Assembly: GCA_034421335.1 (NCBI GenBank)
Contig: DAOUKL010000030.1
Coordinates: 8,753 to 72,752, forward strand
From: Dehalococcoidia bacterium
Lineage (GTDB): Bacteria > Chloroflexota > Dehalococcoidia > Lucifugimonadales > Australimonadaceae
Length of the DNA stretch: 64,000 nucleotides
Direction of reading: 5' to 3'
Shown: one piece after another, positions 12,127-60,850 of the stretch
Position numbering within the stretch: position 1 is the first letter of the stretch
Layout: each line of letters opens with the position of its first letter
Position numbers and translations under genes: made by a program
The notes under the pieces: model-generated
Database searches by the model: none
What the model was told of the DNA's origin: nothing
Seen by the model: only the letters and a program-made list of their open reading frames with translations

Positions 12127-13623
12127 ATGCGTTCGTTGCGAATACTCATACCCTCCCTTCTACTCGGGGCCGCCGTGGCGCTGTCCGCGTGCTCGAATGA
12201 CGAGGGCGCGGCGTGTCCCTCCGCCGGGGGCCCGACGCCAACGCCGACGAGCGCGCCCTCTCCGGCGCCCACGAGCACGCCTCCGGCCTTCGCGGAGTCG
12301 TACGACTCGAACGCGACGATGTGGGCCATCTTCTCCGACCCCGCCCAGCCGCTCGAGTCGTCCTTGGCGGCGGTCGAAGAAGCAGCCGCCCAGGGCGACG
12401 TCTCCATGGTCCCGATCATCGTCGAGATCATGCGGTTCCAGCGGAGTCCGACCCTGTACGCCGCGTACCTCGACGCCCTGGAGACGCTCACCGGCCAGGA
12501 CTTCAGCGGAGCGGACTCGTGGAACGACGCCATGGAGTGGCTGGGCTCCCGGCGCGACCAGTTCCGTCCGCCTTCCGAATACCTGGAGTGGAAGACGAAC
12601 ATCCTGGGGCTGATCGACCCCAGGATGGCGGCGTTCTTCACCGCCGCTCCGGGCTCCGAGCGCATCGACCTGACGGAGGCCGTTTGGGGCGGCGTTCGCA
12701 CCGACGGCATCCCTGACCTGCAGTTTCCGGAGACCCTCTCGCCGGAGGAAGCAACCTACCTCGACCCCCGCGACCGGGTGTTCGGCGTGTCGATCAACGG
12801 GGAGCACCGCGCCTACCCCCTGCGCATCGTGAACGCGCACGAGATGGCGAACGACATACTGGGAGGCGAGCAGATAGCGCTCGCCTACTGAACGCTCTGC
12901 GGCGCCGGAATCGTGTATTCCGCAAACATCGACGGGGAGCCAACCACCTTCGGCACGTCCGGGATGCTCTACCAGAGCAACAAGCTGATGTACGACCGCG
13001 CCACGAACTCGATATGGAACCAGTTCACCGGGGAGCCCGTCGTCGGCCCCCTCGCCCAGAGCGGCATACAGCTCTCCTTCTTCCCGTCCGTTCTCACCGT
13101 CTGGGAGGACTGGCTGGCGGAGCATCCGGACACCACGGTCATCAGCCAGGAGACGGGCCTCTACCCGGCGCAGTTCTACGTGAACGAGTGGGAACCCGAG
13201 GCCATCTACTACAACTACTTCGCGTCCCCCGGCACGATGTTCCCCGTCTTCAACCGCGACGACACGCTGCGGCCCAAGGAGACCGTCATCGGAGTGTCGG
13301 CAGGGGGACGCCACAAGGCCTATCCGGTCAGCGTCTTCTCCAGCGAACCGGTCATCAACGACGAAGTGGGCGGCTGCAACGTGGTGGTTGTCGCGTCCAA
13401 CCTGTTCGGCGAGGCGCGCGTCTACGAGCGCGGCGGCCGGACGTTCTCCGGTGACCCCGATGGCTCGGTCCGGGACAGCGGCGGGGCGCTATGGACCGCC
13501 GGAGAGAACGCGCTGGAGGAATCGGACGGCGAGAGTTCCCTTCCGCGCATCCCGACCGTCACCTCGTTCTGGCACGGCTGGTTCAGCTTCCACCCCGACA
13601 CCGCCCTCTACGGGGAGGAGTGA
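12127..13623 (+). CDS. DUF3179-family selenolipoprotein (498 aa, Sec at codon 255, UxxC)
   Basis: Lipobox LSAC. Track ORFs 12058-12891 and 12913-13623 are in the same frame, joined by TGA 12889-12891 and reading LAY-U-TLC-GAGIVYS at the family CxxC position. DUF3179 motifs RAYPLRIV...HE..ND and FGTSGMLYQSNKLMYDRAT.S.W.Q are present. Confidence 0.88.
12906..12922 (+). promoter_or_regulatory. Putative bacterial SECIS hairpin for the DUF3179 UGA
   Basis: Stem CGGAAT/ATTCCG, loop CGTGT with GU near the loop start, loop beginning 20 nt after the UGA. Confidence 0.6.
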
Positions 13624-50118: not shown

Positions 50119-50772
50119 CTACCCAACCCGCAGCACCCACACCCGGGCGGACGGGTGCGGCGCCGAGGTTTCCGCCTCGACCGTCATGCCCGACTCCCGC
50201 AGCACCCACTCCCAATCATCCAGCGTGTACTTGTTGTGGATGCGGAACTGTTCGAGCGCGCGCTCGTACCGCGTCGCCTCCGGCTCCCCCGGCTCCACGA
50301 GGCGTCGCGCGATGTACTCCCGCATCGGCTCCCGGAGCCAGTCGAAGAGCATCATGCGCCCGCCGGGCTTGAGCACGCGCGCCGCCTGCTCTCGCAGGAA
50401 CGTGAACGGGTCGTCAAACGTGTGAAGCACCGCGGTCATCGCCAGCAGGTCCACCGACCCTTCGTCGAACGGGAGGGGGTTGGCCTCGACGTCGAGCAGG
50501 CTCAGCGTGGGGACAGGCCCCGCGTAGTCGAGCGAGCGGGCGTTCTCGATCATCGCCTCGTTGGAGTCGACGCCGTATAGGTGGGCGTCCGGCAGGCGCG
50601 CGGAGAGGTCGCGCAGGAAGAGGCCCGGTCCGGGGCCGATGTCGGCGATGACCGGCGCCGGCGGGAGCGTGGGGGCGATGCGCTCGTCCCAGAACTCCCA
50701 GAACGCCGGGTTGAACCGCAACTCGTACCGTTCGAGCTGGCGGCGCAGCGCGCGGTCGTCGCGGGAGGTCAT
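50119..50772 (-). CDS. Class I SAM-dependent methyltransferase (paralog A)
   Basis: IADIGPGPG, YGVDSNEAMI, LPFDEGSVDL, RVLKPGG; start at ATG 50772. Confidence 0.88.
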   Translation of the reverse strand: MTSRDDRALRRQLERYELRFNPAFWEFWDERIAPTLPPAPVIADIGPGPGLFLRDLSARLPDAHLYGVDSNEAMIENARSLDYAGPVPTLSLLDVEANPLPFDEGSVDLLAMTAVLHTFDDPFTFLREQAARVLKPGGRMMLFDWLREPMREYIARRLVEPGEPEATRYERALEQFRIHNKYTLDDWEWVLRESGMTVEAETSAPHPSARVWVLRVG

Positions 50773-51407
50773 CGCGGCGCGCACGCGAGGGCGACGTGGC
50801 TGACGCGCGGATGCGCCTCGCCGGCGACGTCGAACCCGGCCTCCGCCAGCAGCCACCGCCACTCCTCCGCCGTGAAACGGTTGTGGTGCGGCTGCAGGCT
50901 CATCATTGCCGTAGGATCGTCGCCGAGCCCGCCCCGGTTCTCGATGTAGTCGGTGAGCGATTGCCGCTTCCAGTCGTACAGCAGGTACACGCCGCCGGGC
51001 CGGAGCATCCGGCGCGCCTCTGCGAACAGCACGAGCGGATTGTCGAGGAAACAGACAACGTTCGCAGAGATGCAGAGGTCGAACGACGCGTCCTCCACCG
51101 GGTACGGCGCCTCGTTCAGGTCGTGCTTCGTGAACGACGGTGCGCCCGTCGCGTAGTCGAGATCCCGGGCGTTCGCGAGCATCGCGTCGGACACGTCCAC
51201 ACCGCGCAGTGCGGCGTCCGGAAGCCTCGACGCCAGTTCCTGCAGCAGCAGCCCCGGCCCGCAACCCAGGTCGGCAATCGCAGGCGCCGCGCTGATGCGC
51301 GGGCGGACGGCGGACTCGAAGAACTCCCAGAACGCGGGCGGGTAGCGGCGTCCGGTGTTCGACGACATCCGCTCCACCATAGCGCTCTGGTTCCACCGGG
51401 TGGTCAT
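50769..51407 (-). CDS. Class I SAM-dependent methyltransferase (paralog B)
   Basis: IADLGCGPG, RGVDVSDAML, YPVEDASFDL, RMLRPGG; start at ATG 51407. Confidence 0.88.
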   Translation of the reverse strand: MTTRWNQSAMVERMSSNTGRRYPPAFWEFFESAVRPRISAAPAIADLGCGPGLLLQELASRLPDAALRGVDVSDAMLANARDLDYATGAPSFTKHDLNEAPYPVEDASFDLCISANVVCFLDNPLVLFAEARRMLRPGGVYLLYDWKRQSLTDYIENRGGLGDDPTAMMSLQPHHNRFTAEEWRWLLAEAGFDVAGEAHPRVSHVALACAPR

Positions 51408-51409
51408 CG

Positions 51410-51820
51410 CTACTCCGCCATGTTCACTGTGACGCCCTGCTCCTTGAAGATGTCGCTGGCCGCCTGCATGCCGTTGAACGCCGCCGGAAGCCCCGCGTAC
51501 GGAACGGCCTGCAGCAGCACCTCGGCTATCTCCTCCGGCGTGATGCCGAGGTGGAGCGCGTAGCGGGTGTAGGCGGCGACCTGCGGAGTCCGGCCCATCG
51601 CCGTACACATCCCCAGCACGATCATGCACCGCGTTCGAAGGTCGAGCCGCTCCCGCGACCATATCTCGCCGAAGTTGTACCCGATGACGAACTCCTCGAG
51701 CCCCGGGATCATGTCCAGCCCGGCGGCGTTCCCCGTGCTGCGCGACCCCTCCGACCCGCTGATCGCCTTGCGCACGGCCCTGCCCCGCGCCTTGCTCTCC
51801 TCTGCCTGATGCAGCGACAT
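51410..51820 (-). CDS. Carboxymuconolactone decarboxylase (CMD/AhpD-like) family protein
   Basis: FGEIWSRERLDLRTRCMIV, GITPEEIAEVLLQAVPYAGLPAA; start at ATG 51820. Confidence 0.88.
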   Translation of the reverse strand: MSLHQAEESKARGRAVRKAISGSEGSRSTGNAAGLDMIPGLEEFVIGYNFGEIWSRERLDLRTRCMIVLGMCTAMGRTPQVAAYTRYALHLGITPEEIAEVLLQAVPYAGLPAAFNGMQAASDIFKEQGVTVNMAE

Positions 51821-51935
51821 ACCGACCTCCTCGCACGCCACAAGTTTCCGGGGATGCTACACGACGGAAGGGCCGCGCCGCGCGCCCTTCTTGAAGGACC
51901 GACGACGGCGGGTGCGCGCCCCGGCGATTCGCCGC

Positions 51936-51941
51936 TATAAT
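51936..51941 (+). promoter_or_regulatory. TATAAT -10 element 6 nt before the selD ATG (leaderless mRNA)
   Basis: gccgcTATAATcccaccATG, with no Shine-Dalgarno. Confidence 0.65.
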
Positions 51942-51947
51942 CCCACC

Positions 51948-52997
51948 ATGCAACAGGAAGAGATTCGACTAACCAGTCTGGCCACCTGCGCGGGCTGAGC
52001 CGGCAAGTTCAGCCCCGAGGACCTCGGCGAGGTCCTGAGCCACCTCCCCCACGTGCGGCACGACGACCTGCTCGTGGGGTTCGACACGAGCGACGACGCC
52101 GCCGTCTACCGCCTGGCGGACGACCTCGCCGTCGTCCAGACGATCGATTTCTTCCCGCCCATCGTCGACGATCCGTACGACTTCGGCGCCATCGCCGCGG
52201 TGAACGCCCTGAGCGACGTGTACGCGATGGGAGGAACCCCCCTCCTGGCGCTCAACATCGTCTGCTTCCCCGAAGACCTGCCCAAGGAGATCCTCGGGAG
52301 CATCCTCCTCGGCGGCATGGACGTCGCCAGGGAGGCCGGCATCGTCATCGCCGGCGGCCACACCGTGAAGGACCGCGAGCCCAAGTACGGGCTCTCCGTC
52401 ACCGGCGTCGTACACCCCGACCACATCGTCACGAACGCCGCCGCCGAGGTCGGCGACGAACTGGTGCTGACGAAGCCGCTCGGCTCCGGCATCATCACGA
52501 CGGCGGCCAAGGCCGGCGTTGCTGACGACGCCACGATTGCCGGCGCTATCGCCACGATGCGGCAGCTCAACCGCGCGGGCGGCGAGGCGATGGTGGAGGT
52601 CGGCGTGAAGTCCGCGACCGACATCACTGGATTCGGACTCGTCGGCCACCTTCTCGGGATGCTGCGCGCCAGCGGGACCGCCGCCAAGCTGAACCTCGCC
52701 GACATCCCCCTGCTCCCCGGCGTCCGCGACATAGTCGAACGCGGCGTCGTCCCCGGAGGCACGGGCAACAACCTCGAGGCGTTCCGGAACGACGTCGCCT
52801 GGGGCCCCGGCATAACCGAGGAGGACCGGATCATCCTCTCCGACGCCCAGACGTCGGGCGGGCTGCTGATAGCGGCGCCGCCCGGATCGACGCAGACGCT
52901 GCTCGACGCCCTGGCCCGGCGCGGCGCCCCCGGCGTCGTGGTAGGGCGCGTCGTGGCCCGCGAGGACGTTGCCAACACCATCGAGGTCGCGTCGTAG
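51948..52997 (+). CDS. selD: Selenophosphate synthetase (selenide, water dikinase), Sec-containing (SenC of the selenoneine cluster)
   Basis: ATG 51948 reads MQQEEIRLTSLATCAG-U-AGKFSP with TGA 51996-51998 as codon 17, in frame with track ORF 52053-52997. Motifs DDAAVY, QTIDFF, NALSDVYAMGG, GGHT, TDITGFGL, DAQTSGGLL. Confidence 0.96.
52018..52036 (+). promoter_or_regulatory. Putative bacterial SECIS hairpin for the selD UGA
   Basis: 8-bp stem AGGACCTC/GAGGTCCT, loop GGC beginning 27 nt after the UGA. Confidence 0.65.
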
Positions 52998-53019
52998 CAG
53001 GCGCAGGTTCTCCCGCGGA

Positions 53020-54333
53020 ATGAGCGCTTTCGATCTGCCAGCCGCGCCTCCCCGCAGCGCGCGAGAACTCGCCGCCGACGCGTGGGACGCCGCGCAGACC
53101 GTCCTCGCGCTGACGGCGGACCTCGACTCCGCCCAGCAGCAGGGCCCCATGATCCCCATCGTAAACCCCGCCCTCTGGGAGGTCGGCCACGTCGGGTGGT
53201 TCTTCGAGAAGTGGACGCTGCGCAATCTGTACGAGGCCTCGGCGATGATCGACCGCGCCGACGAGCTGTACGACTCCGCCGCCATCGCCCATGACACCCG
53301 CTGGCGTCTCGCTTTCCCGACGTGGGAGCAGACCCGGGAGTTCGTGACTGAGGTCGTGCGCAACGCCACCGGGCCGATAGAGCGCCGCGAGCCGAACGCC
53401 CTGGAGCAGTACTTCCTGCAACTCGCTGCGTTCCACACCGATATGCATGCCGAAGCGTTTACCTACACCCGCCAGACGCTGGGCTTCAGCGAGGTGAGCC
53501 TTACGGCGCCCGTCGTGCTTCCCTCCCCCGAGCCCGGCTTCGAGCCGCACGACGTTGCCGTCCCCGGTGGAACGTTCATCCTCGGCCCGGTCGAGGGCGA
53601 ACTGCCGTTCGTGTTCGACAACGAGAAATGGGGCCACGAGACCCGCGTCGAGCCGTTCGCCATCGCCGCAACCGCCGTTACCAACGGCGAGTTCCTCCGG
53701 TTCGTCGAGGCCGGCGGCTACCGCGACCGCTCATGCTGGTCGGACGCCGGGTGGTGGTGGAAGCAGGCGGCCGGCGCGGAGCACCCCGTCTACTGGCGGC
53801 GCGAACGCGACGGCTCCTGGCTGGCGCGGCGCTACGACGCCTGGGGGCCCATCGACCCCCACGCGGCAATCATCCACGTCAACTGGCACGAGGCCAACGC
53901 CTACTGTGCGTGGGCGGGACGCCGTCTGCCGACCGAGGCGGAGTGGGAATTCGCGGCCTCCGGCGGCGCGAACGGCGCCCCCAAGCGGCGCTACCCCTGG
54001 GGCGACGAGCCTCCGTCCCCCGAACGCGCGAACCTCGACTTCCGCGGACGTGGAACGGTCGACGTGCGCGCGCTCCCGGCGGGCGACACTCCGCTCGGCT
54101 GCCGGCAGATGCTCGGCAACGTGTGGGAGTGGACGGCCACCGAGTTCGGCCCGTATCCCGGCTTCACCCCCGACCCCTACAAGGAGTACTCGCAGCCCGC
54201 GTTCAGCGGCCACAGGGTGCTGCGTGGCGGCGCCTGGAGCACCCGCTCCCGCCTCATCCGCAACACCTGGCGGAACTTCTACACCCCCGACCGGCGCGAC
54301 GTGATGTGCGGCTTCCGCACCTGCGCCGCCTGA
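53020..54333 (+). CDS. senA: Selenoneine synthase (EgtB-related non-heme iron enzyme, DinB-like plus FGE-sulfatase domains)
   Basis: IVNPALWEVGHVGWF, YDSAAIAHDTRW, FHTDMHAEAFTYTRQTL, RRLPTEAEWE, GNVWEW, RNFYTPDRRD; directly between selD and senB; start at ATG 53020. Confidence 0.9.
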   Translation: MSAFDLPAAPPRSARELAADAWDAAQTVLALTADLDSAQQQGPMIPIVNPALWEVGHVGWFFEKWTLRNLYEASAMIDRADELYDSAAIAHDTRWRLAFPTWEQTREFVTEVVRNATGPIERREPNALEQYFLQLAAFHTDMHAEAFTYTRQTLGFSEVSLTAPVVLPSPEPGFEPHDVAVPGGTFILGPVEGELPFVFDNEKWGHETRVEPFAIAATAVTNGEFLRFVEAGGYRDRSCWSDAGWWWKQAAGAEHPVYWRRERDGSWLARRYDAWGPIDPHAAIIHVNWHEANAYCAWAGRRLPTEAEWEFAASGGANGAPKRRYPWGDEPPSPERANLDFRGRGTVDVRALPAGDTPLGCRQMLGNVWEWTATEFGPYPGFTPDPYKEYSQPAFSGHRVLRGGAWSTRSRLIRNTWRNFYTPDRRDVMCGFRTCAA

Positions 54334-54349: not shown

Positions 54350-55306
54350 GTGTACATCGGACTGGCGACCCCCGCGCCGCCCGGAAGCCGCAGCGGCAAC
54401 CGCGTCACCGCCAGCCGGTGGGCCGGCTTCTTCCGCGAACTCGGCCACCGCGTCGCCGTCCGCCAGACCTACGACGGCGAGAACTTCGACCTCCTCGTCG
54501 CCGTCCACGCGCTGCGCAGCGCGCAGTCCGTGCGGGAGTTCAACGCCCGCCGTCCCGGCCGCCCCGTCATCGTCCTGCTCGCCGGCACGGACGTCTACGG
54601 CCCACTCTACGAGGAGGGCGGCGGCCCTGTGCTCGATGTGGCGGCGCGGGTCGTAACGCTGCAGCGCCTCGCCATCGAGGAATTGCGCCCCGAGCACCGG
54701 CCCAAGGTCCGCGCAATCGTCCAGTCCGCCCGGCCCACGCCCACGGCGGGGCCGTCGCCCAACGCCCGCACGTTCGACGTGAGCGTCGTCGGGCACTTGC
54801 GTCCGGTGAAAGACCCCTTCCTCGCCGCCGCCGCAACCCGACGCCTCCCGCGGGAGTCCCACATCCGCATCCTCCAACTCGGCGACGCGATGACGCCAGA
54901 GATGGCGCGCCATGCGAACGCGCTCGCCGCCGCTCATCCTCGCTACGAGTGGCGGCGGGGACTCCCGTCCTGGCGCGCCCGCCGCGTGCTCAAGAGGTCG
55001 CAGGTCATGGTGATATCGTCGATTTCCGAGGGCGGCGCCAACGTGGTATCCGAGGCGGTTGTCGACGGCGTGCCCGTGCTGGCGTCGCGGATGCCTGGCA
55101 ACGTGGGGCTGCTTGGCGACGACTATCCCGGCTACTTTCCCGTGGGCGATGGCGCGGAACTGCGGCGGCTCCTGCTCCGCTGCGAGCGTGAGCCGGCGTT
55201 CCTCGCGCAACTGCGCGACGCTGCAGCCCCGCTCCGCGCCACCCTCAACCCGGAGCGCGAGCGCGACGACTGGCGCTCGCTGCTGGAGGAGCTGGGGTTG
55301 GGGTAG
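54350..55306 (+). CDS. senB: Selenosugar synthase (GT-B glycosyltransferase, TIGR04348-like)
   Basis: GNRVTASRW, HALRS, GTDVY, VGHLRPVK, SEGGANVVSE, LASRMPGNVGLLGDDYPGYFPVGD match the recalled SenB pattern. Confidence 0.92.
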   Translation: MYIGLATPAPPGSRSGNRVTASRWAGFFRELGHRVAVRQTYDGENFDLLVAVHALRSAQSVREFNARRPGRPVIVLLAGTDVYGPLYEEGGGPVLDVAARVVTLQRLAIEELRPEHRPKVRAIVQSARPTPTAGPSPNARTFDVSVVGHLRPVKDPFLAAAATRRLPRESHIRILQLGDAMTPEMARHANALAAAHPRYEWRRGLPSWRARRVLKRSQVMVISSISEGGANVVSEAVVDGVPVLASRMPGNVGLLGDDYPGYFPVGDGAELRRLLLRCEREPAFLAQLRDAAAPLRATLNPERERDDWRSLLEELGLG

Positions 55307-55316
55307 GGGACGCCCG

Positions 55317-56195
55317 TTAACGCGCCAGCCGCCGCATGGCGGCTGCGAAGAGGTCGACCCCGATGACCAGCAGCAGGTACCACGCAAGCAGCAGTGTCAC
55401 CGTCGTGTAGTGGAAGTGGCTCATCGCGAGCCGGAACTCCATGCCGAGTCCGCCCGCAGCGACGAGCCCCACTACGATGGTCGTGCGGATGATCACCTCC
55501 CAGCGGTAGAACAGGTAGGTGACGAACCGGGGCAGCGCCATCGGAAGCACGGCGTAGACGATCACCTGGAACCATCCCGCCCCCGACGTACGGAGCGCGC
55601 GCGCAGGGCGCGTGTCGAGCCCCTCCACGACCTCCGCCGACAGCTTGCCGAGAATGCCGAAATTGTGCGCCGCCAGCGCAATCGCCCCCGGCAGGATCCC
55701 CGGCGAGAAGATGAACACCAGCAGCATCGCCCAGATGAGTTCCGGCACCGAGCGGCTGAGCACGTACGCGAGACGCACCGCGAAGAACCACGCCTGCCAC
55801 ACGGGGTTGCGGTACGGCGCCAGTTCGCCCGACATCACGTTCCGCGCCGCGAACATGAACGTGAGCAGCGCGCCGATCGCCGCAAGTCCCGCCGCCAGTA
55901 CGCTCATCGCCAGCGTGTCCAGCGCCAGCCCCCCGGCCTCCGCCCACGCCGAACCGTCGAGGTACGCCGGCGTCCGCTCGCTTCCCGACCCCGCAAGCTC
56001 GCCGAGGAACGACCACGCCCGCGACCCCGTCTCGCCGGAGAAGAACCCGTGGCTCGGCCAGCGCTGCGCGAACACGATGTACGTCCACGCGCTTGCCGCC
56101 AGCATCGCCGCCGCGATGACCGAACCCGACACGAACGACAGCCGTAGCCCCCGCGGCCCCGGCGCGGAGTAGGCGGGCGTCGGCGGCGCGCTCAC
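55317..56195 (-). CDS. PhnE/PtxC-type ABC transporter permease 2
   Basis: SRSVPELIWAMLL, GILGKLSAEVVE, YRWEVIIRTTIVVGLVAAGGLG; start GTG 56195 approximate. Confidence 0.88.
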   Translation of the reverse strand: MSAPPTPAYSAPGPRGLRLSFVSGSVIAAAMLAASAWTYIVFAQRWPSHGFFSGETGSRAWSFLGELAGSGSERTPAYLDGSAWAEAGGLALDTLAMSVLAAGLAAIGALLTFMFAARNVMSGELAPYRNPVWQAWFFAVRLAYVLSRSVPELIWAMLLVFIFSPGILPGAIALAAHNFGILGKLSAEVVEGLDTRPARALRTSGAGWFQVIVYAVLPMALPRFVTYLFYRWEVIIRTTIVVGLVAAGGLGMEFRLAMSHFHYTTVTLLLAWYLLLVIGVDLFAAAMRRLAR

Positions 56196-59872: not shown

Positions 59873-60850
59873 ATGCCCCCTGCCTTCACCGTTGCCGTCC
59901 ACATCTCCACCGACGACGAGCGCGCCTCGGCGGTTGACGAGATCGTCCGAGGGCTCACCTCGTCGCCCAAGACGCTCAGCCCCAAGTTCCTCTATCACGA
60001 GGCCGGCGCCGGCCTGTTCGACGAGATAACGCAGCTCGAGGAGTACTACCCCACCCGTATCGAACGGTCGCTCCTCGAGTGTTTCGGCGCCGAGATCGTC
60101 GGCGACGTTCAGCCGCGGGAAATCGTCGAGCTTGGGCCCGGCAACAGCGCCAAGACCGGGCTGCTGCTACGACCGGCCCTTCAGGCGGAAACGCTGCGGC
60201 GGTACATCCCGTTCGACATCAGCGAGTCGGCGGTGCGTGAGGGCGCGGAGGCGCTCGCCGCCGCACACCCCGAACTCCCCGAGATCGCCGCCGTTATCGG
60301 CGACTTCGGGCGGCATCTCCCCTCGGTCCCGCCAGCGGAGGGGCCGCGCCTCGTCGCCTTCCTCGGCTCCACCATCGGCAACCTGCATCCGGACGAGCAG
60401 AGGGAATTCCTCGCCGACGTACGCGGGATGATGCCGGCGTCCGGCGGAGCCCTCCTCATCGGCGCCGACCTCGTAAAGGATGTGAGCGTCATCGAGGCGG
60501 CCTACAACGACGCCAGGGGCGTCACCGCGCAGTTCAACCTCAACTCCCTCAACGCCGTGAACGATCTGCTCGGCGCTCGCATCGACGTCTCCCTCTTCCG
60601 GCATTGCGCCTTCTTCAACGCCGGGCGCTCCCGCATCGAGATGCACCTCGAGGCCCTCGCCGACGTTGCGATTCCGCTGCCGGCGGGCGGCGAGGCGGTC
60701 GTCCGCGCCGGAGAAACAATCTGGACGGAGAGTTCGTACAAGTTCACGAAGGACGGCTTCGCCGCAACGCTCGCGGACGCTGGGTTCGGCAGCGCCCGCT
60801 GGTTCACCGACCCCGACGACCTCTTCGCGCTCGTCCTCGCCAAACCGTAA
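59873..60850 (+). CDS. egtD: L-histidine N(alpha)-trimethyltransferase (hercynine synthase)
   Basis: PKTLSPKFLY, LFDEITQLEEYYPTR, VELGPG, FLGSTIGNL, AYNDARGVTAQFNLN, RIEMHL, TESSYKFT. Confidence 0.93.
   Translation: MPPAFTVAVHISTDDERASAVDEIVRGLTSSPKTLSPKFLYHEAGAGLFDEITQLEEYYPTRIERSLLECFGAEIVGDVQPREIVELGPGNSAKTGLLLRPALQAETLRRYIPFDISESAVREGAEALAAAHPELPEIAAVIGDFGRHLPSVPPAEGPRLVAFLGSTIGNLHPDEQREFLADVRGMMPASGGALLIGADLVKDVSVIEAAYNDARGVTAQFNLNSLNAVNDLLGARIDVSLFRHCAFFNAGRSRIEMHLEALADVAIPLPAGGEAVVRAGETIWTESSYKFTKDGFAATLADAGFGSARWFTDPDDLFALVLAKP

Follow-up and report, generated by a model that had tools for sequence, protein, structure and literature searches.

The window analysed here, a stretch of 64,000 nucleotides from a contig of a Dehalococcoidia bacterium, carries a short run of genes on the forward strand that begins with selD (senC) and continues with senA and senB (Table 1). 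To judge from the profile matches of its members, selD-senA-senB is a selenoneine cluster with selD as its first gene. The gene for EgtD, which would supply hercynine to SenA, lies 4.6 kb beyond senB, its match to TIGR03438 spanning C30:68685-69590 (59933-60838 of the window), and a transporter is encoded near the sen genes. The segment 51948-52997 is the single selD of the genome and encodes a selenophosphate synthetase of the Sec type, in which an in-frame UGA occupies the place of the catalytic residue.

Table 1. Features of the selD-senA-senB locus and further probable selenoprotein genes of the genome. Positions are those of the window unless a contig (C10, C66, C73) is given.
Feature	Position	Strand	Remarks
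TATAAT -10 box	51936..51941	+	first T 12 nt upstream of the A of the ATG
selD (senC), selenophosphate synthetase	51948..52997	+	349 codons including Sec17; stop codon TAG
Hairpin 1	51992..52015	+	9 bp, GGGCUGAGC / GUUCAGCCC; includes and pairs the UGA
Putative Sec codon UGA, codon 17	51996..51998	+	position of the catalytic Cys17 of E. coli SelD; Lys20 conserved
Candidate bacterial SECIS	52018..52036	+	8-bp stem, apical loop GGC at 52026-52028
senA, selenoneine synthase	53020..54333	+	NF041186, 471 bits (cut-off 420); ends in a TGA stop
senB, selenosugar synthase	54350..55306	+	TIGR04348, 355 bits (cut-off 300); GTG start, GGAG ahead
egtD, hercynine supply for SenA	59873..60850	+	TIGR03438, 316 bits (cut-off 291)
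DUF3179 protein, probable selenoprotein	12127-13623	+	TGA at 12889-12891, motif ALAY-U-TLCG; Pfam match of 253 bits across the stop
AhpC/TSA/deiodinase-like, probable selenoprotein	C10:49571-50491	+	T-U-PPC in thioredoxin-fold domain
AhpC/TSA, probable selenoprotein	C66:22510-23898	+	F-U-GIC in thioredoxin-fold domain
Thioredoxin_3, probable selenoprotein	C73:62632-63618	-	T-U-PHC in thioredoxin-fold domain

Translation from the ATG with TGA read as U gives 349 residues, MQQEEIRLTSLATCAG-U-AGKFSPEDL..., the TGA standing in the context ...LATCAG-U-AGKFSPEDL. The product matches NF002098 with 372.6 bits (cut-off 299; residues 1-347 covered) and TIGR00476 with 392.5 bits (cut-off 125), and these full-length profile matches run across the UGA. 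E. coli SelD (PDB 3U0O) is a homologue from residue 1 over the full length (E 1.1e-74), with U17 and K20 aligned to its Cys17 and Lys20. In the stop-to-stop ORF list the gene appears as 52053..52997, a frame of 314 amino acids with a GTG start whose first codon is codon 36 of selD. The original prediction, made from the letters of the window, had placed a TGA at codon 17 in the context C-A-G-U-A-G-K and had held that the ORF track omits the first 35 codons of selD; the TGA is indeed found there, and the listed frame falls exactly 35 short of 349 codons. The practical gain is a corrected annotation, since gene callers cut these 35 codons off selD and thereby lose the catalytic loop, and a truncated call of this kind can make a selenoneine cluster appear to have a defective SenC.

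The in-frame TGA is a conserved feature of the gene. Among 40 relatives, ranging from the genus to the order, 38 have a selD match with one in-frame TGA, and in all 30 Dehalococcoidia loci that were read in detail the TGA falls in the identical column, in the context CAG-U-A[GSA]K. In a wider sample from other phyla, the U17 column is Sec-type at 44 loci and Cys-type at 25. Residues 14-20, which form the catalytic loop (window 51987-52007), read C-A-G-U-A-G-K, with a cysteine three residues ahead of the selenocysteine (CxxU), and a CxxU or CxxC variant also occurs in some loci of Gemmatimonadota, Calditrichota and Eremiobacterota.

The genome, assembled from a metagenome and representing an uncultured organism, is a draft of 2.48 Mb in 102 contigs with 68% G+C and a completeness of about 92%, and it contains the machinery for decoding such a codon. 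The presence of selA, selB and selC had been proposed as a check on the original prediction, and all three were found: selA with 517.9 bits, selB with 336.7 bits, above its cut-off and with the SECIS-binding SelB winged-helix domains, and selC, the tRNA-Sec, with 70.7 bits (Rfam RF01852). Neither a second selD nor selU was found in the genome; given its completeness of about 92%, a second selD on the missing DNA is still conceivable, though the single-contig genus relatives have one selD each. TGA otherwise serves as an ordinary stop, ending 334 of 1092 confident ORFs and also senA. As to stop usage more generally, the confident long ORFs of the whole genome end in TAG 601 times, in TGA 334 times and in TAA 157 times, and TAG as the commonest stop seems unusual for a genome of this G+C content.

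If UGA17 were a genuine stop, the locus would be a pseudogene, or a leader peptide of 16 codons followed by a truncated SelD that starts at GTG 52053, and the frame returned by plain ORF calling, 52053-52997, corresponds to the latter. However, residues 1-35 show conservation at the protein level, and the alignments with the SelD models and with E. coli SelD begin at residue 1, while the truncated form would be devoid of the catalytic loop from Sec/Cys17 to Lys20. The retention of the TGA at all of the loci and in nearly all of the genomes mentioned above, together with the Sec machinery of this genome, also speaks against a stop, which is extremely unlikely. Selenocysteine insertion at UGA17 can instead be inferred, and selD is almost certainly a selenoprotein gene. 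This reading is further supported by what follows the codon in the mRNA.

Downstream of the UGA lies a hairpin, AGGACCUC-GGC-GAGGUCCU, with arms at 52018-52025 and 52029-52036 and a dG of -13.1 kcal/mol. The original prediction had described an 8-bp hairpin with a G-starting loop 27 nt downstream of the UGA; stem and loop are as described, while the 27 nt separate the UGA from the loop, the stem itself beginning 19 nt after the codon. In the published model of bacterial SECIS elements, the loop has 3-9 nt and the stem 4-16 bp, a G lies within the first two nucleotides of the loop, UGA and loop are 16-37 nt apart, and the minimum free energy is -7.5 kcal/mol or lower (PMC13188914). The candidate falls within all of these limits: its loop is GGC and lies 27 nt from the UGA, its stem has 8 bp, and its energy is -13.1 kcal/mol. 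Hairpins of this geometry whose stems reach 8 bp or more are found after 4.6% of random genome positions, so that geometry alone is weak evidence and the weight of the candidate comes from its conservation and covariation in relatives. Indeed, 94.8% of cells are paired across 30 relatives, and three pairs show compensatory changes; the closing C-G pair becomes G-C in eight sequences, with the protein changing from G-E to A-Q. The covariation is limited because the hairpin sits in conserved coding sequence. In other phyla, the mean best stem after the corresponding selD codon is 7.2 bp for the 44 Sec-type loci, as against 4.8 bp for the 25 Cys-type loci. When 51800-52200 was scanned against Rfam with a permissive E-value, two chance-level matches and no SECIS family came up, which says little either way, since published bacterial SECIS elements show little sequence likeness among themselves (PMC13188914).

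A second helix, hairpin 1, encloses the codon itself and pairs the Sec UGA with the UCA of the following Phe-Ser codons. Across the relatives 88.9% of its cells are paired, the changes being mostly synonymous exchanges between G-C and G-U (C or U opposite G), so that the helix is inseparable from coding constraint. It was considered as part of the SECIS and set aside, its variation being indistinguishable from synonymous drift. Of the 30 relatives, 17 use GGU for the glycine just ahead of the UGA, an apparently uncommon choice for genomes of high G+C content.

The conserved hairpin also bears on two further explanations of the in-frame TGA. The genome is a draft in 102 contigs, and in principle the codon could be a sequencing or assembly error for TGC or TGT in a Cys-type SelD. 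The TGA is, however, shared by independently assembled relatives, several of them single-contig, and Cys-type homologues either lack the conserved SECIS-like hairpin or have a weaker one. An error is therefore not credible, its probability being vanishingly small, and the TGA call is supported by conservation across independent assemblies. Alternatively, UGA17 might be read through without selenocysteine, through a near-cognate tRNA that inserts Trp or Cys or through Cys-tRNA(Sec), which would make the enzyme effectively Cys- or Trp-type. Low-level read-through of this kind is compatible with the sequence, and after a total loss of SelD the loop could in principle be restarted only by some bypass of this sort (see below). 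Yet the Sec machinery is complete and the SECIS conserved, and TGA terminates other genes in the ordinary way, senA among them, so that non-Sec read-through as the explanation of the codon is very unlikely.

Selenocysteine does not appear to be confined to SelD in this organism. In a crude scan of the genome, the Pfam domain alignments of four further genes, two of the AhpC/TSA family, one Thioredoxin_3 and one DUF3179, cross a TGA at the UxxC position (Table 1), which indicates that the Sec trait is in general use in the genome. The DUF3179 gene, which plain ORF calling splits, is on the evidence of its domain alignment a probable second selenoprotein gene in the window. The scan used codon-bias filters and gave at least four to five candidates. 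Since it missed selD itself, whose upstream flank is too short and atypical, the count of extra candidates is a lower bound. A further in-frame TGA was seen in the gene for a molybdenum hydroxylase large subunit (C38:6561-8756, forward strand), between MoCoBD_1 and MoCoBD_2 (ERIA-TGA-SSPKRP); the gene may be split, it may be a pseudogene, or the TGA may be recoded.

The start of selD has an unusual setting. As the original prediction had pointed out, TATAAT ends 6 nt before the ATG, the spacer being CCCACC, and no GGAGG-like SD motif precedes the start codon. Bacterial leaderless genes carry as a signature a TANNNT box some 12 nt ahead of the start, with a TAtaaT flavour in Chloroflexi (Zheng et al., 2011, PMC3160421). 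The selD gene resembles the leaderless genes of that study, as the first T of its box lies exactly 12 nt ahead and an SD is missing. The arrangement TATA[AC]T-N6-9-ATG is kept in about 20 family-level relatives, with a spacing of 6-7 nt (9 nt at locus L023), and the spacer and upstream sequence drift among these relatives while the hexamer stays. In a genome-wide survey of the starts of long, high-GC3 ORFs, TANNNT peaks at 6 and 7 nt before the start with 130 and 98 cases over a background of about 50, and strict hexamers with 42 and 25 over about 7, indicating that a -10 box at this distance from the start is an architecture that the organism employs. In the fold predicted for the first 93 nt, the selD AUG is left unpaired. 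SD-led initiation is in use as well, and the organism has the canonical anti-SD CCUCC; a histogram of SD-to-start spacing, though dominated by codon periodicity, has an excess at 5-10 nt and gives no clean rate of SD usage.

On these grounds the selD mRNA is probably leaderless, as had been suggested, with the conserved box of the relatives and the genome-wide peak at 6-7 nt as the main support. The selenoprotein gene might also be transcribed from further upstream as a leadered mRNA, perhaps from within the 106 nt that separate selD from the divergent CMD gene, with TATAAT unused or one of several promoters. No -35 element is recognisable and a sigma-70 promoter scan gave no -35/-10 pair, so that the promoter argument is carried by the -10 box alone. 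Furthermore, an AGGAG-type SD takes the place of the box in three family members (L026, L027 and L030) and in order-level relatives, which shows that leaderless expression is not obligatory for a Sec-type selD. Against a leader stand the conservation of hexamer and spacing amid drifting surroundings, the genome-wide peak at the matching spacing, and the fact that a leadered transcript would have no SD to use here, so that a leadered mRNA is rather unlikely.

Sec-type SelD proteins are a well-known kind of selenoprotein, and the present one adds to them, so that the scientific surprise is modest. Haemophilus influenzae reportedly has a Sec-type SelD, described by Guimaraes and co-workers in 1996. 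Like other Sec-type SelD/SPS2 proteins (TIGR00476), for instance that of Aquifex aeolicus (PDB 2ZOD/2YYE, with Cys replacing Sec in the structure), the protein has its UGA at the catalytic residue of the N-terminal loop with a lysine three residues on, a SECIS inside the coding sequence just downstream, and a reliance of the enzyme on its own product. It differs from E. coli SelD and many Sec-type SelDs in having CxxU where those have U/C-x-C, and from other Sec-type lineages in the distance from UGA to SECIS loop, which is 27 nt here and 17, 20 or 33 nt there. It also differs from the Sec-type SelDs named above in that its mRNA is probably leaderless and heads an operon for a small molecule. 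E. coli SelD (PDB 3U0O), by contrast, has Cys17 in place of Sec17, no SECIS, and an mRNA that is not linked to a sen operon. SelD is the second most widespread selenoprotein family of prokaryotes (PMC13188914).

The sen cluster, composed of senA, senB and senC, is known from Variovorax paradoxus and Amycolatopsis (Kayrouz and Seyedsayamdost, 2022, bioRxiv 10.1101/2022.04.13.486033). As in that cluster, SenA, SenB and a SelD homologue are encoded together here, all with scores above the NCBIfam cut-offs. Unlike there, the SelD is Sec-type and the only SelD of the organism, so that the SelD of the sen cluster also serves Sec synthesis, and the genes follow the order selD-senA-senB with short gaps instead of overlapping ORFs. 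No discussion of a Sec-containing SenC was found in the searchable sen literature. Synteny of Sec-type selD with senA was seen at about 15 loci of relatives (L013-L020, L026, L027 and L042-L045), and senB was also seen at L013-L020 and L042-L045. The selD-senA(-senB) arrangement is one of the genus and a few neighbouring genera, while other family members have a Sec-type selD without sen genes. Among 50 selD-bearing genomes of other phyla a true SenB was found only in a genome of Marinimicrobia, whose selD is Sec-type, and in this sample no sen operon led by a Sec-type selD was demonstrated outside Dehalococcoidia. In the window, 22 nt (52998-53019) separate the selD stop from the start of senA, and senA is not preceded by an SD; the genus-level relatives (L013-L019, L042 and L043) likewise lack an SD there, and with them included the gap ranges from 14 to 24 nt. 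Ahead of senB stands GGAG or GGAGG, both in the window and in two of four relatives that were read.

Taken together, these observations are best explained by a Sec-type selD that is recoded under the direction of a hairpin, heads the operon and is expressed from a leaderless mRNA, a combination that is highly likely as a whole. The operon would most likely be transcribed from the TATAAT box, with an mRNA that begins at the AUG or 1-2 bases from it, and SelB and Sec-tRNA(Sec) would decode UGA17 as selenocysteine under the direction of the hairpin at 52018-52036. As selD is the sole copy, translation of SelD needs the selenophosphate that only SelD makes. The original prediction had the first gene of the operon depend on selenophosphate for its own translation, and this is borne out in so far as the only selD found is Sec-type. 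An autoregulatory loop for Sec-type SelD was already proposed in 1996, as the proposal is cited in a later paper (Guimaraes et al., reference 22 of PMC8659212). In the present organism, the need of SelD for its own product would constitute an autocatalytic loop that also sets the supply of selenophosphate to SenB, and we infer that it could act as a positive-feedback selenium switch.

Failed read-through of the UGA may in addition be polar on senA-senB, and the start of senA without an SD close behind the selD stop would be compatible with coupling by termination and reinitiation. In such a scheme UGA17, 48 nt into the leaderless mRNA, would be the point of decision: SenA would be made by ribosomes that have passed UGA17 and terminate at the end of selD, so that with scarce Sec-tRNA(Sec) neither SelD nor SenA would be produced, while with selenium available the autocatalytic SelD loop would switch on the production of selenoproteins as well as that of selenoneine. 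The hairpin at 51992-52015, which pairs the UGA, could tune the decoding decision. Such a gate on the translation of the selenoneine operon, in which the Sec codon would respond to selenium status, is a speculative proposal and on balance doubtful. Independently of such gating, a single Sec-dependent SelD in this Dehalococcoidia lineage would feed both the selenoproteins and a small-molecule pathway of selenium, which ties selenoneine output to the Sec-decoding machinery. The translational coupling of senA to selD, if true, would be a simple case of a natural recoding event that acts as a nutrient sensor for a biosynthetic operon.

Two observations concern the borders of the gene cluster. Just past senB, at 55326-55345 of the window, a G+C-rich 8-bp hairpin (CAGCCGCC-GCAT-GGCGGCTG) meets a convergent ABC-transporter operon and may be a bidirectional terminator, though it is not followed by a T-run. 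On the other side, a CMD/AhpD-like gene and a methyltransferase gene (window 50119-51841, reverse strand) are divergent from selD, with 106 nt between the start codons; the methyltransferase ORF is listed with 425 amino acids, and its methyltransferase domain match covers only residues 238-408.
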